This document shows positions 1-11,269 of a stretch of 11,269 nt of DNA, in pieces. The notes beneath the pieces were generated by a model, which was given only the letters and a program-made list of their open reading frames with translations, was not told the origin of the DNA and ran no database searches. The stretch covers positions 1 to 11,269 of the forward strand of contig JAWXCN010000023.1 of the NCBI GenBank assembly GCA_034408725.1. Reading direction: 5' to 3'. A program made the position numbers and the translations under genes. Each line of letters starts with the position of its first letter. Positions within the stretch are counted from its first letter, which is position 1. This DNA comes from Candidatus Hydrogenedentota bacterium (GTDB taxonomy: Bacteria; Hydrogenedentota; Hydrogenedentia; Hydrogenedentales; SLHB01).

Positions 1-61
1 GAATTGCGCGTTCGCGCGCTATGTTTAGCCGTGCCGGCGCTCATTTGTCTGCTCGTGGTAT
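1..61 (+). repeat. Exact 61-nt copy of 1586-1646 (inside the YfhO gene) at the window start; probable chimeric or duplication junction
   Basis: Bases 1-61 (gaattgcgcg...ctcgtggtat) match 1586-1646 exactly. From base 62 the sequence is the minus-strand GT2 gene. Confidence 0.95.
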
Positions 62-426
62 CGCGAGCCGACGGCAACGTCCGCATCAGTGCTTGCCGTT
101 TCGACCAGAGCAGGCAGGTAGGCGGGGTCATGGGAGAGGTCGGCATCCATTTGCACGAAAAGCGCCGCGTCTGGAAATTGTTCCATCGCGTATCGGTAAC
201 CAGCGACGTACGCCGCGCCCAGACCCTGTTTCTGGTTTCGATGCAGGACGCTCACCCGGTCCGGCATTTTGGCAGCTAACTCATCGGCGACTTGACCGGT
301 GCCGTCGGGCGAGTTATCGTCAACAACGAGTATCCGGGCGTCCGGCAGGTGTTCGAGCACCGTATCGATCAAGATCACGATATTGTCGCGTTCATTGTAT
401 GTCGGAACCACAACGACGACGGACAT
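58..426 (-). CDS. Polyprenol-monophosphate sugar synthase (DPM1-like GT2 glycosyltransferase), 3'-truncated
   Basis: Motifs VVVPTYNERDNI, ILVVDDNSPDGTG, GLGAAY, QMDADLSHDP and DVAVGSRY. GGGAG RBS upstream of the ATG at 426. Family similarity ends at GSRY, where the 61-nt duplicated segment begins, so the stop at 25 comes from foreign sequence. Confidence 0.9.
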
Positions 427-517
427 ACGCTACTCCCTTGCAACCACTATCGTTAGAAAGTCCGCATACTACCGGTGCGCCCCGGTCTTTGCAATGTTGG
501 CATGACGACGGACGGGC

Positions 518-2914
518 GTGCGCGTGACATTGCGCGTGCCATCGGCTTACCGCGAGTATTTGTTTCATGCTGCCCTTGTGGGGATGGCGCTCGCAGCTAT
601 TTTCCCGCTGGTGTTCCTGCGCGGCCACATGATTTCTTCAGCCTATTTGCTGTACGACTTTGCACCGTGGAAGGCCTATGGGTCACCAGCCGATTTTCCG
701 CATGACAAGGCGATCCTGACCTGGGAGTTCCTTGGCGTGTTTACGGGATGGTACTCCCTTGCGAACCGCGCGTTGTCGATGGGGGAGTGGCCGCTTTGGA
801 ATCCTTATGAGCATACCGGGGTGCCGCTGCTGGCCAACTACCAGTCCGCAGTGTTTTATCCCCCGAGATTGTTGCACGCGCTCATCAATCTTCATCTGGC
901 GAGTACGCTGCTGATTTTATTGAAGGTATGGCTGTGTGGTTTTAATGCTTATATCTATGCGCGTTGCACCGGCCTTGGTAAACCTGCATCGCGCCTTTTG
1001 TCTTTTGGCTGGATGCTTGCCACCTACAATATGGTTTGGACCTATTGGAGCCTGGCCGATGTAAGCGCCTGGTTTCCATTGCTCTTGCTTGGGGTCGAGT
1101 GGGCGTTGCAGGAACGGTACCGTCGCGCATTCTTTCTAATCGCCGCGAGTGCTACGTTGATGCTGTTAGCCGGGCATCCGGAAACCGCTTTCAGCATGGC
1201 GCTCGGCGCCGGCTTTTATTTTCTACTCCGCCTGGTTATAGTTTGGCCCAGCATGCGCTTTCCGTGGCGTGCGCCAGCGGTGTGTTTAGGCGCGTGGGCA
1301 TTGGCGCTACCGGTCTGCGCCGGGCAAATCCTGCCATTCCTCGAATACCTGCGCCATAGCTTTACCCTCGCGGAACGCGCCGGCCAGGCATCATCCGAAC
1401 ATGCACTAAGTGGCCTTGCACTCGTGAATGTCTGGGTGCCGCGCTATTTCGGCATGACCCATACGCCGACCGGGAATTATTGGGGTGGTTGGATCAATTC
1501 CAATTTTAACACCGTCATCTATCCGGGAATCGCCGTGCTGCTCTGCATTCTGATGTTGTTTTCCCTACGCAGAGGGGCCAGGAACGAATTGCGCGTTCGC
1601 GCGCTATGTTTAGCCGTGCCGGCGCTCATTTGTCTGCTCGTGGTATTCGATCATCCCGTCACGCATTTCATTAAAGCGGTGCCCGTTATCGGGTCAATGT
1701 GGAATATATGGTGGTTTGCATTTCCCGCCTTCGCGATTCCCGCCATTGGAGCGCTCGGTCTCGAACACGCTCTGGCAAGCAAACGTCCATTTCGAGACGC
1801 CGCGCCCGCGATAGCCGTCGCTGCAACGGCATTGGTCGCGTGCGCGGCTTTGTACCTCTCGTTTCATCGCGGCATTCATATTCTGGAAAAGAAGGGCTTG
1901 GACTATTACGTGCAGATGCAGCTTGGCATTGCATTCGTGTTCGCATTGTCCGCGATTACAATACTTGTCCTGCTGATTCGCTGGAAAAGTACGCGTCTCG
2001 CGAACACTCTAGTGGCGTTGTTGGTCGCGGACCTGCTATATGCGTCGCATGGCATTCATCCAACCGCCCCACTGGACCGCATTCTGCCCGAAACCAAGCT
2101 TACAAACTGGATTCAAAGTCAGGACCCGCCTCCCCGATTCGCATTGGGTTCCGCCTCTTCCGCGACAATCCCCGACGGCATCATGCAGTTCTACGGGATA
2201 GAAGATTTTTTGGGATACGATGGCATTTATCCAGAACGGGTGAAAGTGTTGCGTGAAAAGGTGAAACTCTGGAACAGTATCGATCCGGTATTTTCCGTGA
2301 AATACTATTTAAACCTTCCAGCACTTACGCTGTTTGTACCCGAAGACCAACGCAAAAATTTCAAACTCGTCGAGACAATTGACGGACTGGAAGTCTACGA
2401 AAACCTTCGCGCTTGGCCACGCGCGCGTCTGGTACCCAATGCCCGCGTGCTGCCAGACCGCGAAGCGATCTTCGACGTGCTGGACGATCGAACGTTCGAT
2501 CCCGCCCAGACTGTTTTGTTGGAAGAAAACTTCGAGCCGCCCTTGCCGGAAAATACGACGAATGATATCGGAACGGTCCGATTTGCCGGGCGCACCATGA
2601 ACACTGTTCGACTGGAAGCGCAAACCACCGCGCCTTGCGCATTGGTGTTGAGCGATCAATACTTTCCCGGATGGAACGCCTACATCAACGGCGAAACGGC
2701 GCCGATCCATTCCGCGTACTACCTGTTTCGCGCGGTCCAGCTTGCCGTGGGAAAGCAAACGATTGAGTTCCGTTACGAGCCCATGAGTTTTAGAATTGGA
2801 ATGGCGATATCAATTGCGGCCATGTTCTCGGGCCTGGCAGCCGCGTTATTCTGCATGCGAAAGCATCGCGGAATTGGCGCGATCAATCCATCAGGGCGCG
2901 CGCGTTGGCCATAA
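518..2914 (+). CDS. YfhO-family polytopic membrane protein (putative GT-C glycosyltransferase)
   Basis: 798 aa with many hydrophobic segments. N-terminal GEWPLWNPYEHTGVPLLANYQSAVFYP, LLAGHPE and C-terminal LVLSDQYFPGWNAYING...FRAVQLAVGKQTIEFRYEP followed by a final TM helix are typical of YfhO. Divergent from a GT2 lipid-sugar synthase. The GTG start is uncertain. Confidence 0.85.
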   Translation: MRVTLRVPSAYREYLFHAALVGMALAAIFPLVFLRGHMISSAYLLYDFAPWKAYGSPADFPHDKAILTWEFLGVFTGWYSLANRALSMGEWPLWNPYEHTGVPLLANYQSAVFYPPRLLHALINLHLASTLLILLKVWLCGFNAYIYARCTGLGKPASRLLSFGWMLATYNMVWTYWSLADVSAWFPLLLLGVEWALQERYRRAFFLIAASATLMLLAGHPETAFSMALGAGFYFLLRLVIVWPSMRFPWRAPAVCLGAWALALPVCAGQILPFLEYLRHSFTLAERAGQASSEHALSGLALVNVWVPRYFGMTHTPTGNYWGGWINSNFNTVIYPGIAVLLCILMLFSLRRGARNELRVRALCLAVPALICLLVVFDHPVTHFIKAVPVIGSMWNIWWFAFPAFAIPAIGALGLEHALASKRPFRDAAPAIAVAATALVACAALYLSFHRGIHILEKKGLDYYVQMQLGIAFVFALSAITILVLLIRWKSTRLANTLVALLVADLLYASHGIHPTAPLDRILPETKLTNWIQSQDPPPRFALGSASSATIPDGIMQFYGIEDFLGYDGIYPERVKVLREKVKLWNSIDPVFSVKYYLNLPALTLFVPEDQRKNFKLVETIDGLEVYENLRAWPRARLVPNARVLPDREAIFDVLDDRTFDPAQTVLLEENFEPPLPENTTNDIGTVRFAGRTMNTVRLEAQTTAPCALVLSDQYFPGWNAYINGETAPIHSAYYLFRAVQLAVGKQTIEFRYEPMSFRIGMAISIAAMFSGLAAALFCMRKHRGIGAINPSGRARWP

Positions 2915-3727: not shown

Positions 3728-3803
3728 GCGCCCGTAGCTCAGCGGATAGAGCACTTGCCTCCGGAGCAAGGGGTCGTACGTTCAAATCGTATCGGGCGCG
3801 CCA
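3728..3803 (+). tRNA. tRNA-Arg(CCG)
   Basis: Acceptor stem GCGCCCG/CGGGCGC plus GCCA, D-arm GCTC-AGCGGATA-GAGC, anticodon arm CTTGC-CT-CCG-GA-GCAAG (CCG at 3761-3763), T-arm GTACG-TTCAAAT-CGTAT. 76 nt with encoded CCA. Confidence 0.97.
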
Positions 3804-3820
3804 TATAACTCCCACCTACG

Positions 3821-3896
3821 CAATACCTTACGAATGCGCCACTACGGGGCCAAATTCGACTACTTGACATTTTCGCTACTTTCCGGCAACTATAAT
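3821..3896 (+). promoter_or_regulatory. att-arm and integrase promoter region
   Basis: Partial IHF-like CAA-TACC-TTA (3821-3830); repeats TTCGACTACTT (3855-3865) and TTCGCTACTT (3872-3881); TTGACA (3864-3869) and TATAAT (3891-3896) separated by 21 nt. Confidence 0.5.
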
Positions 3897-3900
3897 TCTC

Positions 3901-4980
3901 ATGATTAGGGGTCAAAGTAAAGCGGGGCGAAAGTCGAGACCAATTACACGCGGCACCATCGTGTTGCGCAATGGAATCTACTCGTGGAAGCACCGGTGCA
4001 GAGGGCAAGTGGTGTGGACCCGGTTGGATGCTACAAACAAAACAGATGCGGAAACCGAGCGTGATGCCCGCATGGCGGACTTCCACGGGAATCGGGAGCA
4101 ATACCTTCAGAACGCGCTTGATCTGCCTGTCGAGGCGTTCTGGGCAAAGTATGAGGCATGGGCGCGGGAGCATCGGCGGGATGCAACGCTGAAAATCCAA
4201 ACAACATTCTGGAAGGCGTTGATCGAGCATAGCGGCGCGTACCGCATGAGCCAGATTACTCGCATCACGCTCGAAGAGTTCAAGACCGCACAATTAGGCC
4301 GTTGGTCAAAAGCCTCGGTTAACAGTGCGCTGAAGGACATCCGTGCAATATTCAACCGGGCGATTAAACAGGGTTGGTATTCGGGTCCGAACCCGACAGT
4401 CGGGATCGAACGCTACACCATCACCCGGAAGTTGCCGGAACCGCACAACGAAGCCGAACTCAACAAGCTGCTCGAGTACGCTGCGAAAGTTGGCCAGGTT
4501 GCGGAATGGACTGTGCTCCTGGGCGGATGGGCGGGACTTCGCCGGAAGGAAATCACGGCGGCGCGTTGGGAGTGGTTCCACTTCGACGGGCAGGAGCCTA
4601 TAGTCGAGATCAAGGCGTTCGAGGGATTTGACCTGAAGGATTCGGAAGAACGCACAATCGCGATGAGCAGGCGCGTATTCGACGCGCTGTATCCGCATCG
4701 GAAGGAAAGCGGTTTCCTGTTCGAGAGCGGACACAAGAACGAAGGGAAGCACCGCTACCGGTTCGAGCCGCGGCGTCAATTATTCGCGGCGCTACAGGCC
4801 GCGGGGTTGTCCACAGACGATGCTTTTCAGCGGTTGAGGGTGTCATTCGCATGTCTGCACGCGATGGCCGGCACACCAATTTATACGCTGTCGAAATGGC
4901 TTGGGCATAGCAGCGTGACAGTGACGGAGCGGTATTACGTGAGGGCCAAGGGGTATTCGAAGGACATCGACGCATTCTGA
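3901..4980 (+). CDS. int: Tyrosine recombinase / phage integrase
   Basis: 359 aa. Core-binding region (SKASVNSALKDIRAIFNRA), box I AGLRRKEI, K in DLKDSEERTI, box II FQRLRVSFA and WLGHSSVTVTERYY. Adjacent to a tRNA. Confidence 0.95.
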   Translation: MIRGQSKAGRKSRPITRGTIVLRNGIYSWKHRCRGQVVWTRLDATNKTDAETERDARMADFHGNREQYLQNALDLPVEAFWAKYEAWAREHRRDATLKIQTTFWKALIEHSGAYRMSQITRITLEEFKTAQLGRWSKASVNSALKDIRAIFNRAIKQGWYSGPNPTVGIERYTITRKLPEPHNEAELNKLLEYAAKVGQVAEWTVLLGGWAGLRRKEITAARWEWFHFDGQEPIVEIKAFEGFDLKDSEERTIAMSRRVFDALYPHRKESGFLFESGHKNEGKHRYRFEPRRQLFAALQAAGLSTDDAFQRLRVSFACLHAMAGTPIYTLSKWLGHSSVTVTERYYVRAKGYSKDIDAF

Positions 4981-5018
4981 AATAAAATACCCGCCGGATG
5001 TTGTAGCACCCGGCGGGT
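4979..5018 (-). terminator. GC hairpin with T-rich tail on the minus strand (possibly bidirectional terminator)
   Basis: ACCCGCCGG (4989-4997) pairs with CCGGCGGGT (5010-5018). The minus strand continues ATTTTATTT after the stem. Confidence 0.6.
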
Positions 5019-5110
5019 GAAGAGTCTTAACTACCAGGTAGGTAGTCGGAACCAGTCAATTCCGATTCTACCCTACCCGGTGCAACCCTTCAAGAGGGGA
5101 GAATTGCATC

Positions 5111-5371
5111 ATGCCGAAGCCGAAGAAACCCGCCAAGCCGAAGAAATCGCAGCCACCGAGCGCCTTGATTCAACAGGTACGCAAATTCCGCGAGGAGGAC
5201 CGGAAGACTTCGGAGCGCTACGCCAGACTCCACGAAGCAACCGTGGCGCGGCTGTCCGGGCCGGTCGAGTTCGATTGGTGCTCCAAATGCAAGGTCGTGC
5301 GCGACGGCACCTACTGTGTGGACTGCGGTTCCAAACTTCTGACCCACACAGACGTGCGGGGTGCGAAATGA
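5111..5371 (+). CDS. Small zinc-ribbon protein with basic N-terminus
   Basis: CSKC...CVDC motif pair, GAGGGGA RBS at 5094-5100, ATGA-coupled to the next ORF. Confidence 0.7.
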   Translation: MPKPKKPAKPKKSQPPSALIQQVRKFREEDRKTSERYARLHEATVARLSGPVEFDWCSKCKVVRDGTYCVDCGSKLLTHTDVRGAK

Positions 5372-5481
5372 GCAAGAAAAACAAGCGTGTCAATCCTGGG
5401 TATCGGCAAAAGATTTTGCAGGACTGGAAGAACCTTCGGCGTCTTATTGAATTGCGCCTACGAAAGCGGGGTGCGAAATGA
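5356..5481 (+). repeat. 16-nt direct repeat GCGGGGTGCGAAATGA at two consecutive gene junctions
   Basis: Exact copies at 5356-5371 and 5466-5481. Confidence 0.9.
5368..5481 (+). CDS. 37-aa basic small protein (MSKKNKRVNPGY...LRKRGAK)
   Basis: ATGA overlaps with both neighbours. It is the C-terminal part of the listed ORF 5017-5481. Confidence 0.6.
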   Translation: MSKKNKRVNPGYRQKILQDWKNLRRLIELRLRKRGAK

Positions 5482-6263
5482 AAGCACAGCCAACCGGAAA
5501 GAGGCCGAAAAACCGCACGTGTCTAGATGTCCACCCGGACACGAAGGCATTCCATAACCCCGACGCGAAGCTATCAGCCGTTCCATGGCTGAAGGGCGTG
5601 CGAGTCGAACTCTACGGGCCGGAGATTTGGGCACCAGCCGGACCGGGTGTTACGGAAAACCTTTGCGAGCGTTGCGGCGGGCACCACACGATACTCAACG
5701 ATAAAGCGCGTTATTGCCCGTGGTGTGGCGCTGTGCTGTACCTCAACAAGGCGCGGCGGTTCCCCGAACTGAAACTTGCAAGCCCGGACGAGTTGAGGAC
5801 CGACGATGATGACGATGATGCGCCGGCGACGTTGCCGGAAATCCCGTCGCAGTCGGAACATGACAAATTGATGGAGACGCTGAAAGAATTCGCGAAAATA
5901 CAATGCGCTTACTTCGATAAAGTGCTGTCCGAAAACAAACAGGCGGCGGCGGAGCCCGAGCCGTACAAGCAATCCATCGTTGACACGCTCAACATGCTTG
6001 CCGAAGGACTCTCGTGCGCATGCGGAGACGCGGAGAAGCCGGACGTCGGCGGGGACGAAGCGATTAACCATTTCGCGCGCGGAATCCGGTTGTTGCTGGA
6101 AACGGAGAAGACGCACGAGAGCGCGATCAGCCTGTTAGTCTATCGCTTATGGGAAGCGGGACAAACACTACCGGAACTCGTGACTGGCGATTCCGTGAAA
6201 GACCATTTCGCGCGCGGCGTCCATAAGTTGTTGGCGGATATTGCCGAGATCGAAGCAACATAG
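5478..6263 (+). CDS. Hypothetical protein with zinc ribbon, acidic linker and a duplicated C-terminal helical motif
   Basis: CERC...CPWC motif pair, DDDDDD tract, HFARG motif twice 45 aa apart, ATGA-coupled start. Confidence 0.75.
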   Translation: MKAQPTGKRPKNRTCLDVHPDTKAFHNPDAKLSAVPWLKGVRVELYGPEIWAPAGPGVTENLCERCGGHHTILNDKARYCPWCGAVLYLNKARRFPELKLASPDELRTDDDDDDAPATLPEIPSQSEHDKLMETLKEFAKIQCAYFDKVLSENKQAAAEPEPYKQSIVDTLNMLAEGLSCACGDAEKPDVGGDEAINHFARGIRLLLETEKTHESAISLLVYRLWEAGQTLPELVTGDSVKDHFARGVHKLLADIAEIEAT

Positions 6264-6276
6264 TTTTTTGTCTCTC

Positions 6277-6337
6277 ACCCCGCGCGGTCTAGGGTAGCTC
6301 CCGAAAACCGCATACCGTGGCGCCGGCCGCGCGGGGT
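6277..6337 (+). ncRNA. Candidate structured cis-regulatory RNA (three-way junction) upstream of ORF 6374
   Basis: 13-bp outer stem 6277-6289/6325-6337 (one G-U) enclosing GGG-TAGCT-CCC, a GAAAA linker and CCGC-ATACC-GTGG; followed by TTATT. Confidence 0.5.
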
Positions 6338-6373
6338 TTATTGAAGCACGGAGCACCAACGGGAGTGCGAGAA

Positions 6374-7054
6374 ATGAACGAAGCGGATTGGGAAAAATGG
6401 AAACCGGATTTACTTGCGGACAATCACTTGTGGGTTTGGACGCTGGCGCATCTATTGTGCGGAAAAGAGATGCCGCACGGCGGCACGGCATGGGTACCTG
6501 CGAGAAAGATAGTCGAGCAAGCCGTGCTGTGTGTGGACGAAGGATCGCTACAGGGCGTCAAGCAGACTTCCCACCATTCGCGTATCAAGTACGACTATTC
6601 CAAAGCGGTTATACGTTCTGGCAAGTTTCCAAAAGGGGAAGCCGTCGGCGTCGAGAGCTATGTCGAATACACCTACATGATACGGCCGGCGGCGTTTGTC
6701 GCCTGGGCACGTGGCAAGGGATACGCGGTTGCGCCGGAGTTGAATGCGATGTTCCCGCTGGCAAAGGTCAAAGTATCTCGTGGCCCTCACAAGGGTGCAA
6801 AAACAAACCAAGTGAACGCGGCGAAGCGGCGGGAAGCGTTGCGGGCTGCAATCGGATTCATCTTACAAACAACCCCGCGGCAACAAGGATTGTCAGCAAC
6901 CCGGTGGAACGCGGAAATGGTGTTTACCATCCTAAAAAAACAACACCAAGCCGGAAATCTCAAAGAATACTTTTCGCAGAAAGTAACCCTACTCACGGAC
7001 AAAAAGACTGTTCTACCAATCATCCAAGAACAGTTAGACACGAAAATCCGATAA
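6374..7054 (+). CDS. Hypothetical genomic-island protein, possible DNA-binding regulator (226 aa)
   Basis: ATG at 6374 with GGGAG RBS at 6361-6365, preferred over GTG 6317 which lies inside the RNA stem. Pattern W..LL.G..P and F.AWA..KG....EL, basic C-terminus. Function is inference. Confidence 0.75.
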   Translation: MNEADWEKWKPDLLADNHLWVWTLAHLLCGKEMPHGGTAWVPARKIVEQAVLCVDEGSLQGVKQTSHHSRIKYDYSKAVIRSGKFPKGEAVGVESYVEYTYMIRPAAFVAWARGKGYAVAPELNAMFPLAKVKVSRGPHKGAKTNQVNAAKRREALRAAIGFILQTTPRQQGLSATRWNAEMVFTILKKQHQAGNLKEYFSQKVTLLTDKKTVLPIIQEQLDTKIR

Positions 7055-7059
7055 TTCCA

Positions 7060-7146
7060 GCGGACCTTATGCGGACCTTTGAAGGTACGCATACCCCTAT
7101 AAATATTGCCGATTGTAAAGGTCCGCATAAGGTCCGCAAGGTTCGC
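7060..7146. repeat. Operator- or iteron-like array: 21-bp perfect inverted repeat built from ~11-bp units
   Basis: GCGGACCTTATGCGGACCTTT (7060-7080) is the exact reverse complement of 7117-7137. Extra degenerate units AAGGTACGCAT (7082-7092) and AAGGTTCGC (7138-7146). AT-rich centre. Confidence 0.9.
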
Positions 7147-7163
7147 GCTATCACTTTTTGTAG

Positions 7164-7188
7164 ATGTCGAGTAACTTGCACTCGACAT
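7164..7188. promoter_or_regulatory. Inverted repeat ATGTCGAGT-N7-ACTCGACAT (operator or hairpin)
   Basis: Perfect 9-bp arms at 7164-7172 and 7180-7188. Confidence 0.6.
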
Positions 7189-7261
7189 TTGAAAAACGGG
7201 CACACGGACCGACGAATCCGCCTAACCAATCGCTTTCCCGTTCGCGCCTCACAGGCGTTTC

Positions 7262-7305
7262 GGCCACTGGTGAAACTTTCGTCGGTCCCACCGGTGGCCT
7301 TTTTT
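7262..7305 (+). terminator. Intrinsic terminator / attenuator in the leader of the replication operon
   Basis: GGCCACTGGTG (7262-7272) pairs with CACCGGTGGCC (7289-7299), followed by T6 (7300-7305), 11 nt before ATG 7317. Confidence 0.7.
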
Positions 7306-7316
7306 CATTCCGGGAA

Positions 7317-7961
7317 ATGATGAACACAGCGAAACGACATAGCGGCACCAACCTACACGCGGACCGCGAGCAAGCAAACTTTGTATTCGGAAAATCCTTC
7401 ATCCGGCTTGATCGGCGGCTGTATGAATCGCCTGCATTCCGTTCGATACCGTTGCCCGCACAAGCAGTCCTAATCGATTTCATTTCGTTATGGCGTGTTG
7501 CCGAGCGCGAAACCATAGCCTTCCCTTGGGCGGCTTGCTCTAACCCGCAGGTGAGCGAGCGCGTTTTTCGAGATGCGATACAGCGGCTTGTTGCCGATGG
7601 GTTTTTGGACCGTTGCGCGTCAACCGGACTCGCCAATTCCTACCGGCCTTCGTCGCGGTGGATGACGGCAAAAGCCACCGAAAAAACACTTTCGCGAATG
7701 GCCGCGAAACAGACGCGAACCACAGGAAAAAGGCAAAGGTTTACCCATGCAGAATCCGCACAGGGTAAACCCCTTACCTGTGCGGAATTCGCACAGGGTA
7801 CCAGTGCGGAATCCGCATTGGTTAAACCCCTTAACCCATGCGGAATTGAGGCCGATAACCCATGCGGAATTGAGGCCGTTAAGAAGACTAAGAGAGACTT
7901 AATACCCCCCCCAAGACAGGAGACTTTCCGGAAAGTCGGGGGTGGGGGGTTGGATTTTTAA
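7317..7961 (+). CDS. Winged-helix replication-initiator-like protein with internal iterons
   Basis: FIRLDRRLYESPAFRSIPLPAQAVL...SERVFRDAIQRLVADGFL...NSY resembles phage initiator wHTH domains; the C-terminal part is encoded by DNA repeats. Start placed at ATG 7317/7320 because 7164-7316 is structured leader with a terminator. Confidence 0.7.
   Translation: MMNTAKRHSGTNLHADREQANFVFGKSFIRLDRRLYESPAFRSIPLPAQAVLIDFISLWRVAERETIAFPWAACSNPQVSERVFRDAIQRLVADGFLDRCASTGLANSYRPSSRWMTAKATEKTLSRMAAKQTRTTGKRQRFTHAESAQGKPLTCAEFAQGTSAESALVKPLNPCGIEADNPCGIEAVKKTKRDLIPPPRQETFRKVGGGGLDF
7741..7949. repeat. Putative replication origin: iterons plus palindrome
   Basis: Quasi-palindromic TGCRGAATYCGCA at 7748, 7781 and 7805; TAACCCATGCGGAATTGAGGCCG at 7832-7854 and 7856-7878; perfect palindrome GACTTTCCGGAAAGTC (7922-7937) flanked by C8 and G runs. 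Confidence 0.7.
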
Positions 7962-7963
7962 TT

Positions 7964-8419
7964 ATGCCGGAAATTGAAAAAATCAGCACCCTAATTCCCG
8001 ACGTGGCCAAGCGCCTAAAAGCGGCGGCATCGTCAAACCCGCACTATGAGGCCGAGGTGGCAGCGCGGGACACGGCGGTCCGGGACATGGCTAAGGCCAA
8101 GCGCGAAGTCGAGCTATCGCCTGCAATCGCGTTGCGTCGGGAATTAGAGAAGCGCCTTGGCGAGCTCGCGGGCGCTACAGCCGATGAACGCCGAAAGGCG
8201 GCGTGCACGATTATTGCGAACGCCGTCGCCAGGAAATACCGCACAAGCGCAAACGCCGTCGACGTCGGCAAAGTTGTCGCGGCTGTAGCCACATACGGCA
8301 GTAGTTTAGTACTGGACGTAGCGATGGAAATTCTGACCGAGCCGAGCGACAAAAGCATCCGCAACATTTTTTCTATTTTCCTTGGCCGTTTGCGGGTTCG
8401 GCAAGAGGCGGCGTCATGA
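7964..8419 (+). CDS. Hypothetical helical protein; C-terminus resembles replication-initiator C-terminal domains
   Basis: Starts 2 nt after the upstream stop, ends SIRNIFSIFLGRLR, ATGA-coupled to the next gene. Confidence 0.7.
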   Translation: MPEIEKISTLIPDVAKRLKAAASSNPHYEAEVAARDTAVRDMAKAKREVELSPAIALRRELEKRLGELAGATADERRKAACTIIANAVARKYRTSANAVDVGKVVAAVATYGSSLVLDVAMEILTEPSDKSIRNIFSIFLGRLRVRQEAAS

Positions 8420-8808
8420 CGGACCGCTGGAAAGACGCAGAGCGCGAAGCCGCGGAAGCCCTGGGCGGGACCCGCGTCATTCGGCAATGGAATTTATTCG
8501 AGTCTGCGGCCGACGTGCTTGTCCCGGACTTTGGCCTTGTCTGCGATTGCAAAGCCTATCGCCGGTTTTCAATCCACACGTTGATTGACACCGTGAAGCG
8601 CAAGTATTGCGGGCGCGGCGAAACGCCGGCGCTTGTCACGAAGAGCCAGGGGCAGCATGGTGCGTATATCACGCTCCCGATGGATTACGTTGGCGGGCTG
8701 CTCGACGAACTCCGCGCGCACCGGCGAGGCGCATCTTATGGTGCGCGTACACAAAGCACGCGCACCAGTGACGAACTCCGCGCGCACCGGCGAGGCGCAT
8801 CGGCATGA
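8416..8808 (+). CDS. PD-(D/E)XK nuclease, putative Holliday junction resolvase
   Basis: N-terminal helix with E (KDAEREAA), AD-V motif, D-C-K motif, then PALVTK and AYITLPMDY, a pattern like phage Hjc-type resolvases. C-terminus extended by a duplication. Confidence 0.7.
   Translation: MTDRWKDAEREAAEALGGTRVIRQWNLFESAADVLVPDFGLVCDCKAYRRFSIHTLIDTVKRKYCGRGETPALVTKSQGQHGAYITLPMDYVGGLLDELRAHRRGASYGARTQSTRTSDELRAHRRGASA
8704..8801. repeat. 32-nt direct repeat pair around a 34-nt hairpin spacer
   Basis: GACGAACTCCGCGCGCACCGGCGAGGCGCATC at 8704-8735 and 8770-8801. The spacer contains TGGTGCGCGT (8739-8748) / ACGCGCACCA (8758-8767). Confidence 0.92.
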
Positions 8809-9077
8809 GCACGAACGCCTGGCGACCCGAGTTGCGCGACGTGTTGGAAAACGCGTTGTCGAGTGCGGCTGTGGTATGCAAGTTGAATTTCACAGATCCG
8901 GAGTGGCAACGGTTTTGCAAACATGCAACCCGCGCACTTGATGAGCAATTACGAAGGAGCAAATTCACAGTGGCCGAAAAAATTGATTTCAGTGACTGCG
9001 GGACAATTCAACAACGCCAGGCAAAATTGCTGGAGCTGATTCTAGAAGAACTTCGCAAGTTGAATGCGCGGGAATAA
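8805..9077 (+). CDS. Hypothetical protein (90 aa)
   Basis: ATGA-coupled to the upstream gene, GAGG RBS at 8792-8795, part of a continuous operon. Confidence 0.65.
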   Translation: MSTNAWRPELRDVLENALSSAAVVCKLNFTDPEWQRFCKHATRALDEQLRRSKFTVAEKIDFSDCGTIQQRQAKLLELILEELRKLNARE

Positions 9078-9081
9078 GCCG

Positions 9082-9333
9082 ATGAGAGTTGAAACACACA
9101 CCATTCCGCGCGCGGCTATTCAGGCCGCGATCGACGAAGCGGACATGCGGCGCCACGGGATGATCGTCAACCTGAAACGCTATGGCGAACTCAAGCGCGT
9201 CTGTGATGGCGCGGATGAAGAATTTCTTATGGACCAATTGTTGGTCGGTACGAGTGACAACGAAGCGGCACAGGATTGGATCGCCAGGTTACAGCGACAG
9301 CTTAAAATACTCGAAAGGAACTTACAGCAATGA
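9082..9333 (+). CDS. Hypothetical protein (83 aa)
   Basis: ATG 4 nt after the previous stop, ATGA-coupled to the protease gene, helical C-terminus. Confidence 0.65.
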   Translation: MRVETHTIPRAAIQAAIDEADMRRHGMIVNLKRYGELKRVCDGADEEFLMDQLLVGTSDNEAAQDWIARLQRQLKILERNLQQ

Positions 9334-10103
9334 GCGGTCGGATTTTTGCAAAAGCAAGTGGCAACACGTTGCGCATGGATTTTGTCGGGAGCATCGGCGA
9401 TGGCGAACTCACGGCGCGTGGCGTGTCGGACCAGTTGCGCGCTGCCGAATCGCGCGGCGTGAAAAGTATCCACGTTGTGGTGAATTCGCCTGGCGGATAC
9501 GCGATGGACGGCGTGAGCATTTACCAGTTGCTAAAAACTTTCAAAGGCACATGCACAACGGAAATTTCGGCGTATTCACTTTCGGCCGCGTCTATGATTG
9601 TTTGTGCGGGCGAGCGCATATCGGCGCACGAGAATTCACTCTTCATGATCCACATGCCGCACGGACTATCGGCCGGTGGAGCGGATGACTTGCGTAAAGA
9701 CGCGCACGCGATGGACGTGATCGCGCGGCAATTCGCGGGCATCTATGCCGAGCGCACCGGCAAGAGTGTCGAGGCGATGCTTGCGTTGATGCGCGCGGAA
9801 ACGTGGTTTTCAGGCGCGGAAATTATCAACGCGAAATTCGCCGATGAATTACTGCCAGCGGACAAGATGGCCGCATCGTTTGACCTGGGCAAGTTCCACT
9901 ACGCGCGCGCCGTGGCCAAGCACGGCATGAGCGCAACCACCCGATGGAGCGCGGCGCTACGCGAGGCCGCGGCATTGGGTATCGGCAATCGCAAACCCGC
10001 AACGGCGAAGCACGAGCAAGTGAAGTGGATTGACACCAAGTATCCGGGACTTCGCGCGGAATATGCCGCAGAATTCAACGCTGTGCATTGTGCGCGGCGA
10101 TAA
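9330..10103 (+). CDS. Phage-type ClpP-like (S14) head maturation protease with ~80-aa C-terminal extension
   Basis: Motifs VNSPGG, GVSIYQLLK, SAAS (catalytic Ser region), FMIHMP (His), IYAERTGKS, AETWFSG and FADEL, as in phage ClpP prohead proteases. Confidence 0.92.
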   Translation: MSGRIFAKASGNTLRMDFVGSIGDGELTARGVSDQLRAAESRGVKSIHVVVNSPGGYAMDGVSIYQLLKTFKGTCTTEISAYSLSAASMIVCAGERISAHENSLFMIHMPHGLSAGGADDLRKDAHAMDVIARQFAGIYAERTGKSVEAMLALMRAETWFSGAEIINAKFADELLPADKMAASFDLGKFHYARAVAKHGMSATTRWSAALREAAALGIGNRKPATAKHEQVKWIDTKYPGLRAEYAAEFNAVHCARR

Positions 10104-10127
10104 GCAAACACCAAGGAGATTTTGAAC

Positions 10128-10874
10128 ATGGCAACCGCAGTGAGAAAACAAGAGACCGCGCCGAAGTTGACGGCGCAGGAAGTGGCGCAAGAGTGTCGCG
10201 CGGTTCTCGAACGATTGAACGCAAGGCAACACGAATTGCTCACGCGGTTCAGAACGCTGTCGAACGAGGCGGCGTTGATAACGGACGCGGCGCGCGAGAA
10301 GATGGTCGAGGAGCTTGTGCGAGTGCGCGCCGAACTGGACATCCTGCCCGCGCAGATTGGACACGCGCAAGGCCGGCAGATGGTCGCGGCAATGCTTGTC
10401 GAGGAAGCCACGGCGCGTGAAAAGCTGATACAGGCGGACAAGTTGGAGGAACGCATGAGCGTAGTTATCAACATGCTTCGTGATGACCCCGCCGAAGTTG
10501 TGGCCCCGGTGCGCGCGGTCTACACCACGCACGTGGACACGTTACGCCAGTACGCGCAAGTACACGAGCGATCCAGCGAACTGTATGCACGGCGGAACAC
10601 GTTGGCGAGGCGTATCGATGAAGAACGGCGCGAGGTCAATAATCAGCCGCACATCTCCGATGACTTGTGGGACAATCCGAAGAAGCTACAAGCGTTTCGC
10701 GAAGCCGCACGACGTGGTCTGGAGCAACGCATTGAAGAGATGCAACACGAGATGGCTACTCTGCCCGCGGTGTTGCTCGATGAAGCGAGCACGTGGCCGC
10801 CAAGTGTTCAACGGCATTGCAACGAAACCCGGTATGCGCGGAAGCACCACATTACCATCGAGCTTGCGAAGTAA
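10128..10874 (+). CDS. Coiled-coil, predominantly helical protein (248 aa)
   Basis: AAGGAG RBS at 10113-10118 before ATG 10128; rich in E, R, A, L, Q with heptad-like patterns. Confidence 0.8.
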   Translation: MATAVRKQETAPKLTAQEVAQECRAVLERLNARQHELLTRFRTLSNEAALITDAAREKMVEELVRVRAELDILPAQIGHAQGRQMVAAMLVEEATAREKLIQADKLEERMSVVINMLRDDPAEVVAPVRAVYTTHVDTLRQYAQVHERSSELYARRNTLARRIDEERREVNNQPHISDDLWDNPKKLQAFREAARRGLEQRIEEMQHEMATLPAVLLDEASTWPPSVQRHCNETRYARKHHITIELAK

Positions 10875-10878
10875 TGCG

Positions 10879-11025
10879 CGCGACGGTTAAACGGCAGCCA
10901 GGACTCGTTCCGCGTGGCCTTGCGGCGTCTCACGCGCGGTCAAGGGTGTTGCCGTGCCGTCGCGTCGCCATATCGGGCCGTGGTGGCACGCCCTTAACTC
11001 CAGGCGTGCCGCCACCATGCCCGAT
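10879..11025 (+). ncRNA. Two long adjacent hairpins in non-coding DNA (candidate structured RNA or DNA element)
   Basis: Pairings 10879-10886/10957-10964, 10891-10898/10948-10955, 10911-10916/10931-10936; and 10972-10978/11019-11025, 10980-10992/11003-11015. Confidence 0.45.
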
Positions 11026-11030
11026 CGTTT

Positions 11031-11085
11031 GGGTCCTCCCCGGGGCCCCCCAAGGCCTTCGCGGTAGGCATCTTGGTATCCGCGA
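11031..11085 (+). other. Putative lambda-type cos packaging site (cosQ-like plus cosN-like)
   Basis: GGGTCCT (11031-11037) is the lambda cosQ heptamer. 21 nt later comes the dyad TCGCGG (11059-11064) ... CCGCGA (11080-11085), directly upstream of a Nu1-like gene. Confidence 0.6.
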
Positions 11086-11136
11086 GATATTAATTGACAC
11101 ATTTTTTGGATTTCGCTTCCGGTAGAGGGTTGAAAA

Positions 11137-11269
11137 TTGTCAATAGTTACGGACATACGGCGCGTGACGCAGCGGATCGCAGCGGAAATTTTGGGAGTGT
11201 CGGCGCGCACCTTGCGTGACATGCCGGAAGCGCCGCGAAACAGGGACGGTAGCTATAGCTTGCCCGCAC
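11137..11269 (+). CDS. Terminase small subunit, Nu1-like winged HTH (partial, runs off the window)
   Basis: Absent from the ORF track. TTG start with GAGGG RBS at 11125-11129 gives MSIVTDIRRVTQRIAAEILGVSARTLRDMPEAPRNRDGSYSLPA, similar in pattern to the lambda gpNu1 N-terminus (VNKKQLADIFGASIRTIQNW). An excisionase-type HTH is an alternative. Confidence 0.65.
   Translation, partial: MSIVTDIRRVTQRIAAEILGVSARTLRDMPEAPRNRDGSYSLPA

Follow-up and report, generated by a model that had tools for sequence, protein, structure and literature searches.

An integrated element of 10,599 bp in the 3' end of the tRNA-Arg(CCG) gene of a Candidatus Hydrogenedentota bacterium is probably a complete and still mobile phage satellite, which would spread with parts borrowed from a helper phage. 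The window analysed here, 11,269 nt long, is the entire contig C23 of a metagenome-assembled genome (MAG) of 280 contigs and 92.28% completeness. We favour a satellite because the element is bounded and intact, is equipped with integrase and excisionase-like genes, and carries one packaging-specificity gene and four virion-assembly genes, while core virion and lysis genes are absent. The initial annotation had proposed a satellite rather than a compact prophage, and both the measured size and the absence of the large terminase (TerL), portal, capsid and lysis genes support that view; dependence on a helper is presumed.

The integration target named in the initial annotation was recovered by ARAGORN and Rfam, and the following boundary features were identified:

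3728..3803, plus strand: tRNA-Arg(CCG), the integration target (ARAGORN; Rfam RF00005, 64.9 bits).
3756..3804: attL, an exact 49-nt direct repeat covering the 3' part of the tRNA gene (exact-match scan, match extended).
Contig C94 of the same genome (G000), 6508-6556, minus strand: attR, the partner of attL.

In an exact scan of the whole genome, the 49-nt sequence was present at these two places only. The metagenome contig L004, which surfaced in a search with relatives of a 513-aa protein of the element, joins the two contigs: it corresponds to C23 8436-11269 at 99.97% and to C94 9675-7252 at 99.96%, with 15 nt between them. The exact attR on C94 and the bridge formed by L004 therefore give an element of 10,599 bp, not of 30-50 kb. 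The search for attR and the measurement proposed in the initial annotation thus returned no 30-50 kb element with terL, portal, capsid and a full tail/lysis module. Between the perfect repeats lie 16 open reading frames (ORFs) on one strand, with 91% of the sequence coding and a GC content of 56.4% (57.0% in the genome). The stretch between 3901 and the end of the window holds eleven ORFs plus the first part of a twelfth, all on the plus strand, as described earlier for the run from integrase to terS, with overlapping or closely spaced stops and starts, and the AT skew is positive throughout. Because the window is a whole contig, what is not in view there is uninformative on the sequence beyond its end. 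Read toward attR, C94 carries a TerS fragment, a 99-aa orphan ORF downstream of terS, genes for a 153-aa and the 513-aa protein (p153 and p513), a gene for a helix-turn-helix (HTH) protein of ~100 aa, the repeat and a host PilZ gene.

The junction within terS bears on the possibility that a deletion or a mis-join produced the 10.6-kb form, with most cells carrying a longer prophage whose middle part was left unbinned. The MAG breaks inside terS and a Logan contig of run X2 breaks there too, the genome is a 280-contig MAG that is 92% complete, and phage contigs are often missing from bins. However, the independently assembled L004 crosses the break with the terS halves in frame, contigs of runs X1 and X4 extend 951 and 835 nt beyond the window end (in extent only), the low depth of ~7-10x accounts for random breaks, and the depths of element and flanks are equal, so we give such an artefact a very small chance. 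Ten Logan runs contained the sequence, all of them DNA-type mat metagenomes represented by assembled contigs, with no RNA run among them. Element and flanks alike correspond to one copy per genome, and the equality of element and host depth indicates that the element was quiescent in these samples.

Four features at the right end of the window are related, or may be related, to head maturation and packaging:

9330..10103, plus strand: ClpP-family (prohead-type) serine protease, 257 aa (PF00574, 5.5e-23, 82.2 bits against a gathering threshold of 20.2).
10122..10874, plus strand: orphan coiled-coil protein, 250 aa, no family match.
10875..11136: non-coding structured spacer of 262 nt, adjacent to terS on its upstream side, possibly a cos/pac site or a regulatory region for late genes.
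11137..11269, plus strand: 5' part of terS (HTH N-terminus; 44-aa open ORF at 11137-11268), continuing past the 15-nt gap to C94 9673-9332 (minus strand).

The ClpP assignment of the initial annotation was upheld by head-maturation-protease PHROGs, whose E-values ranged from 1e-45 to 1e-24 (phrog_133, 6.8e-45; phrog_94, 2.1e-44), and the stretches NSPGG, SAAS and MIHMP, which we take to be motifs of the family, are visible in the ORF. Homologues of 30-37% identity were found in 7 of the 134 other genomes of the phylum. For the adjacent 250-aa coiled-coil protein, neither these 134 genomes nor a set of 5.8 billion proteins contained a homologue, and Atlas gave sub-threshold leads only, including Psu at 0.89 (TM 0.36/0.46); by position only, it is a candidate scaffold or size-determination protein.

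The small terminase is complete. The 113-aa open fragment on C94 matched the C-terminal half of phrog_57 (1.1e-13), and on L004 (2702-3193) both pieces join in frame into a protein of 163 aa that matched phrog_57 at 1.1e-19 over positions 13-183 of 199, which confirmed the gene called earlier; Pfam Phage_Nu1 matched neither half searched separately. The closest TerS homologue in the phylum (36% identity, 4.9e-15), in genome G129, lies directly upstream of a GpA-type TerL gene (2.1e-71), which fits the helper with a lambda-type terminase that had been suggested. The spacer upstream of terS contains inverted repeats and folds as DNA at -67.8 kcal/mol, versus -50.8 +/- 3.3 for shuffled sequences (z -5.2; 0 of 200 shuffles as good).

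Packaging is the main sensible use of a TerS whose gene has a structured site immediately upstream. This argues against an integrative element that keeps phage genes for a host or defence role, by interference with tail or head assembly, without travelling in virions. PADLOC matches, moreover, were found for 0 of the 10 ORFs tested. Such a role would agree with the protection that satellite-like islands often give their hosts, according to PMC10085698, and with PLE11, for which a preprint (10.1101/2025.01.29.635557) describes a block of phage tail assembly via the tape measure protein (TMP) pathway. It would also agree with the 6 of 16 ORFs (151, 90, 89, 99, 250 and 265 aa) that lack any family match, most of the others having no assignable function. 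Overall, we give the defence explanation little credence.

TerL, portal, capsid, tail tube, fibre and lysis functions had no Pfam or PHROG match in any of the 16 ORFs, and the only ORF long enough for TerL or portal is the 513-aa one. For the window itself, the initial annotation had listed no lysis, portal, capsid, AlpA or primase-helicase gene, and no family match of these kinds was found there. In addition, PF05876, PF03354, PF04860 and PF05065 (GpA_ATPase, TerL_ATPase, Phage_portal and Phage_capsid) were not found anywhere in the genome, whereas control genomes were positive. The evidence that TerL, portal and capsid genes are absent from the genome is thus strong but not final, because the genome is only 92% complete.

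The same annotation had reported neither tail genes nor AlpA. This holds within the window, but beyond it two tail-related genes and, at the far end, an excisionase/AlpA-class HTH gene were found. The protein p513 has six homologues of 41-47% identity in the 5.8-billion set, and its family comprises 122 representatives at E<=0.001 in a full HMMER scan, mostly of 450-650 aa. An AlphaFold2 (AF2) model built from 8 sequences (mean pLDDT 63.6) shows an all-helical core at residues 120-370, with pLDDT of ~85-95, and is confident in the core only. In Foldseek against BFVD, the model had 87 matches at E<=0.001, and the top named ones were tail tape measure or minor tail proteins. When a wider alignment of the family was searched as a profile against the PDB, only coiled-coil noise came back, and neither p513 nor p153 had a tblastn match among 50,697 deposited phages.

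In a prophage of genome G112, from the same order, the p513 homologue (549 aa, 28% identity, 5e-24) follows TerL (phrog_15), portal (phrog_21), protease (phrog_53), major capsid protein (MCP; phrog_1005) and small ORFs, and precedes five large ORFs and an endolysin gene, with head-proximal tail genes on one side and large distal ORFs on the other. The p153 homologue of this prophage (29%, 1e-15) is flanked by the head genes and a 307-aa ORF, and the Atlas model of p153 gave TM 0.51-0.75 to viral clusters, some with Phage_tail_S or HK97-gp10_like. Because of the fold similarity and the tape-measure slot in the complete G112 prophage, p513 may be read as a tape measure and p153 as a tail-completion protein of the gpS/gp10 class, both with moderate confidence. 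At ~1.6 A per residue, the figure used for tape measures in the preprint 10.1101/2025.01.29.635557, 513 aa would correspond to a tail of ~80 nm. The ~100-aa protein beside attR is of the HTH_17/excisionase type (E 1.9e-5, 25.3 bits, below the 27-bit cut-off; phrog_7338, 2.4e-7).

A working satellite of this composition might act as follows. On infection by, or induction of, a helper siphovirus whose terminase is of the GpA type, Int and Xis would excise the element, and the orphan 265-aa protein, a putative initiator, would start replication at its own iterons. The satellite TerS would then direct the GpA-type TerL of the helper to a target within the structured spacer that lies upstream of the terS gene. 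The protease and the coiled-coil protein could act on capsid assembly of the helper, possibly giving a small head that fits 10.6 kb; DNA of this length would require either a small head or several copies per head. Finally, the satellite tape measure and tail-completion protein would enter tails otherwise made of helper parts, giving chimeric tails as in the Vibrio PLEs.

Several points weigh against a satellite. No excised circle, empty site or packaged form was found, and no attP/attB junction was present among the 24 of 77 Logan loose ends listed. No helper phage was found, the genome itself has none, and no phage was found with homologues of all of TerS, ClpP, p153 and p513. The ClpP homologue lies within an ordinary head-gene cluster in all five phylum contexts examined by ORF order and size; in four it is downstream of portal- and TerL-sized ORFs, the fifth contig ends just upstream, and TerL was confirmed in G129 and G046 only. 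The tape-measure call for p513 rests on predicted-fold similarity and synteny: fold searches of the PDB returned designed helical repeats only (Foldseek best E 2.3e-3; VIA best Z 5.8), and PF10145 (TP901 core) matched 1 of 70 family members (E 0.0023, below cut-off) and not p513 itself. The roles given to the protease and the coiled-coil protein are guesses from position, and the initiator, cos and size-redirection steps are putative. A related element in genome G011 has an integrase split by an insertion sequence (IS) and is thus decaying, which indicates that such elements can be remnants.

The main competing explanation is a cryptic remnant of a lambda-like prophage that lost most of its morphogenesis and lysis genes by deletion and keeps the rest as inert cargo. 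All late genes that could be recognised have homologues among ordinary prophages of this order, the succession of int, replication, cos and terS, then TMP and attR, is collinear with the lambdoid prophage map, the G011 integrase is interrupted, the genome lacks a helper, and the depth corresponds to one silent copy per genome. A remnant is nevertheless at odds with the state of the element. Its 49-nt att repeats match perfectly, neither Int nor the Xis-like gene is damaged, and all 16 ORFs are open, many with overlapping starts and stops at 91% coding. Moreover, several precise deletions would be needed to obtain this gene set from a phage. The order of a protease and a coiled-coil gene upstream of terS is unobtainable by deletion, since phages of the phylum have the order terS-terL-portal-ClpP, and two or three other small elements in other genera have a p513-family gene near an att-like end. 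We therefore judge a remnant unlikely and retain the satellite as the preferred explanation.

Three candidate helpers were considered and rejected. The G112 and G129 prophages share two genes each with the element; at identities of only 28-37%, neither is the actual helper. G015:C115, a contig of 43 kb with the same att sequence in a sister species, was rejected because no protein is shared at E<=0.01. This contig (L044-L046; 43,127 bp) has ends that repeat each other, so that it closes as a circle, and it starts with the same 46 nt of the tRNA-Arg(CCG) 3' end. A 463-aa ORF comes immediately after them, where an integrase would be expected. The contig resembles a temperate phage at the same att site, with large ORFs of 650, 671, 1348 and 985 aa.

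Other genomes of the genus add to the picture of this site. In G014 and G016, IMPase and tRNA-Arg(CCG) genes are found together, the PilZ gene that lies past attR in the present genome does not occur within ~3 kb, and the match past att extends over 10-17 nt only. G017 carries two more exact copies of 46-48 nt of the att sequence on short contigs (C282 6923-6970 and C350 2322-2367); no homologue of the satellite proteins was found on either contig, and the copies hint at another element in the same tRNA site.

A p513-family gene was detected at E<=1e-10 in 5 of the 133 genomes of the order, this one included. In G011 (C10, ~766.4-778.8 kb; L011 11441 to L012 3808), it belongs to an element of ~12.4 kb including the IS, located at tRNA-Lys, with a 46-nt attR at 97.8%. 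The genes of this element encode the IS-split integrase, an HTH protein, a 649-aa protease-MCP fusion (phrog_4523, 1.1e-77), p513-like and p153-like (35%) proteins and a primase-helicase; no portal-sized ORF or terminase was seen in it. It looks like a decaying, capsid-encoding cousin of the satellite. In G028 (L007), a coiled-coil ORF, a p513-like gene and a 71-aa ORF precede a tRNA 3' fragment ending in CCA, recognised by eye (an Rfam scan gave no score). On one strand of an 8.4-kb contig of G121 (C301 140-4771; L020), the 89-aa ORF has a weak homologue, which is followed by a p513-family gene of 560 aa, a coiled-coil ORF of 131 aa and a 389-aa integrase gene, with 1.2 kb between the p513-family and integrase genes. 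In G112 and in metagenome contig L005, by comparison, the p513-family gene is followed by tail-like genes. The family is thus found both in full phages and in small att-bounded elements. Searches of genome and viral contigs with ClpP alone and with the p513 alignment gave no related loci, and three single distant members of the family found nothing among viral contigs.

Tentatively, the element could be the first member of a new satellite family, in a phylum of mat bacteria that is small and has been little studied, which rebuilds both ends of the helper virion, a proposal we regard as possible rather than probable. Its own protease and scaffold-like protein would serve the head and its tail-completion protein and tape measure the tail, with capsid protein, portal, TerL and tail tube coming from the helper. 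The relatives would form a series from elements that hijack capsids (this one) to elements that encode them (G011), united by the tape-measure/tail-completion pair.

The left part of the element contains the integrase, the replication candidates and a series of small ORFs:

3901..4980, plus strand: tyrosine integrase, 359 aa (PF00589, 8e-10, 39.2 bits, cut-off 27.1; phrog_1, 1.8e-35).
4989..5018: terminator-like hairpin with a 12-bp stem, just past the integrase stop (repeat search).
5111..5371, plus strand: 86-aa ORF, zinc-ribbon-like, with two CxxC pairs (weak matches only: phrog_23450, 0.0045; NF041664, 0.029).
5478..6263, plus strand: 261-aa ORF with zinc-ribbon-like CxxC...CxxC and an acidic stretch (no family at E<=0.001).
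6317..7054, plus strand: 245-aa ORF (no Pfam, NCBIfam or PADLOC match; one weak PHROG, 0.0066).
7060..7137: perfect, operator-like 21-nt inverted repeat in the gap 5' of the 265-aa ORF (arms 7060-7080 and 7117-7137, 100% complementary; Tandem Repeats Finder (TRF) row 7118-7138).
7164..7961, plus strand: 265-aa orphan ORF with iterons, putative replication initiator (nothing in Pfam, PHROG or NCBIfam).
7742..7882: array of five iterons in the 3' end of the 265-aa ORF, core TGCGGAAT, partly palindromic, putative origin (direct/inverted repeats; TRF period 24, score 95).
7964..8419, plus strand: 151-aa ORF (no match in Pfam, PHROG, NCBIfam or PADLOC).
8416..8808, plus strand: 130-aa nuclease-like ORF (weak Holliday-junction-resolvase PHROGs: phrog_244, 8.1e-5; phrog_2002, 3.2e-3; no Pfam or NCBIfam match).
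8704..8801: 66-bp tandem duplication (32-nt exact repeats at 8704-8735 and 8770-8801) within the nuclease-like ORF, at its 3' end.
8805..9077, plus strand: 90-aa ORF (no match in Pfam, PHROG or PADLOC).
9064..9333, plus strand: 89-aa ORF (weak tblastn homologue in G121:C301, 26.5% over 83 aa, E 4e-6, located immediately upstream of the tape-measure-like gene there).

Meaningful Pfam or PHROG matches were limited to the integrase, ClpP, TerS, the Xis-like HTH protein and, weakly, the nuclease; three early ORFs had only weak matches (E 0.001-0.007), to PHROGs of unknown function. In tblastn of the element proteins against their own genome, only two housekeeping ClpP genes and one weak partial match were obtained. 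A weak partial paralogue of the 261-aa ORF lies at C97 2296-2576 (31% over 88 aa, E 3.7e-6). Across the sequence as a whole, terminator sites were no more numerous than in shuffled sequence.

Integrase and internal iterons were both called correctly in the initial annotation. For the 265-aa ORF, which had been labelled a winged HTH initiator, only the protein itself was found among the 5.8 billion proteins in a word-based search, and a single-sequence AF2 model was unusable (pLDDT 39); with neither family, homologue nor usable model, the label remains a guess. The resolvase-like nuclease stands on its two PHROG matches and gains nothing from Pfam or NCBIfam. The 66-bp duplication in this gene repeats the peptide DELRAHRRGAS and is polymorphic in the mat population, since one contig of run X4 skips from 8703 to 8770 and has one copy fewer.

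At the opposite end of the window, upstream of the element, positions 1-61 are an exact copy of 1586-1646 inside a YfhO-like gene and truncate the 3' end of a GT2 glycosyltransferase ORF (25-426, minus strand). The duplicated first 61 nt of the contig are probably an assembly-end artefact; despite this suspicion, a Logan contig of run X2 spans window positions 32-966 without difference.

The nearest known systems include the lambda-like temperate siphoviruses of the same order, which have homologues of individual genes: G112 is the source of the p153 and p513 homologues, and G129 of those of TerS and ClpP. Unlike the element, G112:C129 and G129:C73 are complete prophages that possess TerL, portal, MCP, distal tail genes and an endolysin. 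Lambda-like siphoviruses of the order are likely the kind of helper involved.

Membership in the known satellite groups was judged from Pfam, PHROG and NCBIfam matches against the published set descriptions. On this basis, the element apparently lies outside the gene set of P4, and it is outside those of phage-inducible chromosomal islands (PICIs) as well as of capsid-forming PICIs (cf-PICIs), in agreement with the misfit pointed out in the initial annotation. With P4 it shares a size of ~11 kb, integration at a tRNA gene and a tyrosine integrase, and the helper-dependent cos packaging of P4 has a counterpart in the candidate cos. P4 carries a helical size-determination or decoration module beside cos. 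In the present element there is no family match to Psu, Sid, Delta, epsilon or the alpha primase-helicase, the sub-threshold Atlas lead to Psu being the one such trace. To our knowledge, P4 has no TerS, protease or tail genes.

The element resembles PICIs in having an integrase at one end and genes in one direction, but it has no AlpA or Pri-Rep primase family, and its sole HTH_17 protein is at the far end beside attR. According to PMC10085698, tail and holin genes are 'forbidden' components in the SatelliteFinder models of PICIs and cf-PICIs, whereas this element has tape-measure-like and tail-completion-like genes. Should it prove to be a functional satellite, a class of satellites would be escaping every search in which tail genes are forbidden. 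According to the same source, cf-PICIs are likewise integrase-first, one-directional islands with TerS, a prohead protease and head-tail or tail-joining genes, and their 11 core parts include TerL, portal, major capsid protein, head-tail adaptor and connector (PMC10085698). None of these five has a match in the element, and the G011 element, with its protease-MCP fusion, is closer to cf-PICIs.

The EPIPs (Extracellular Prophage-Inducing Particles) of Mycolicibacterium aichiense are ~11 kb in size and contain terS, scaffold-type, head-tail joining, integrase, HTH and TMP genes without tail, lysis or most capsid functions (bioRxiv, December 2025; PMC12822802). By gene-content description, the element is similar in its ~11-kb size, its TerS and its TMP-like gene, and also in a scaffold if the coiled-coil ORF has that role. 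The integrase of EPIPs is of the serine type, and they were obtained as free particles by which a prophage helper is induced (PMC12822802). The present element, in contrast, lies at a tRNA gene with an integrase of the tyrosine type, has a ClpP protease and a putative iteron origin, and belongs to another phylum.

In a limited literature on satellites with a tape measure or with a prohead protease and scaffold, we found no account of this gene set. The element, from an uncultured mat bacterium, is bounded and apparently intact and pairs TerS with head-maturation genes and with tail-length or tail-completion genes. Most of the phage satellites known so far belong to Proteobacteria, Firmicutes and, more recently, Actinobacteria. 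If the element is a working satellite, tail remodelling, described for PLEs in 2025 and suggested for EPIPs, would extend far beyond those hosts, and the choice of a tape measure in tail assembly could be studied in the family as a compact system.

The Vibrio cholerae PLEs are the functional parallel. According to the preprint (10.1101/2025.01.29.635557), they encode their own TMP (582 aa), chaperone and hub, form chimeric satellite/helper tails and remodel capsids with their own scaffold. The likeness to them is functional only, in that the element has its own 513-aa tape-measure-like protein and a tail-assembly-like gene. PLEs are ~18 kb, occur in Vibrio only, depend on a virulent myovirus helper, ICP1, and use a tail assembly chaperone (TAC) and a baseplate hub (10.1101/2025.01.29.635557), whereas the tail partner here is tail-completion-like and a ClpP protease is present. 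The preprint also mentions predicted tmp genes in unrelated satellites outside Vibrionaceae. If the proposal of a new family is true, the making of chimeric tails by satellites, for which Vibrio PLEs are so far the only demonstrated case, would be a strategy both old and widespread.

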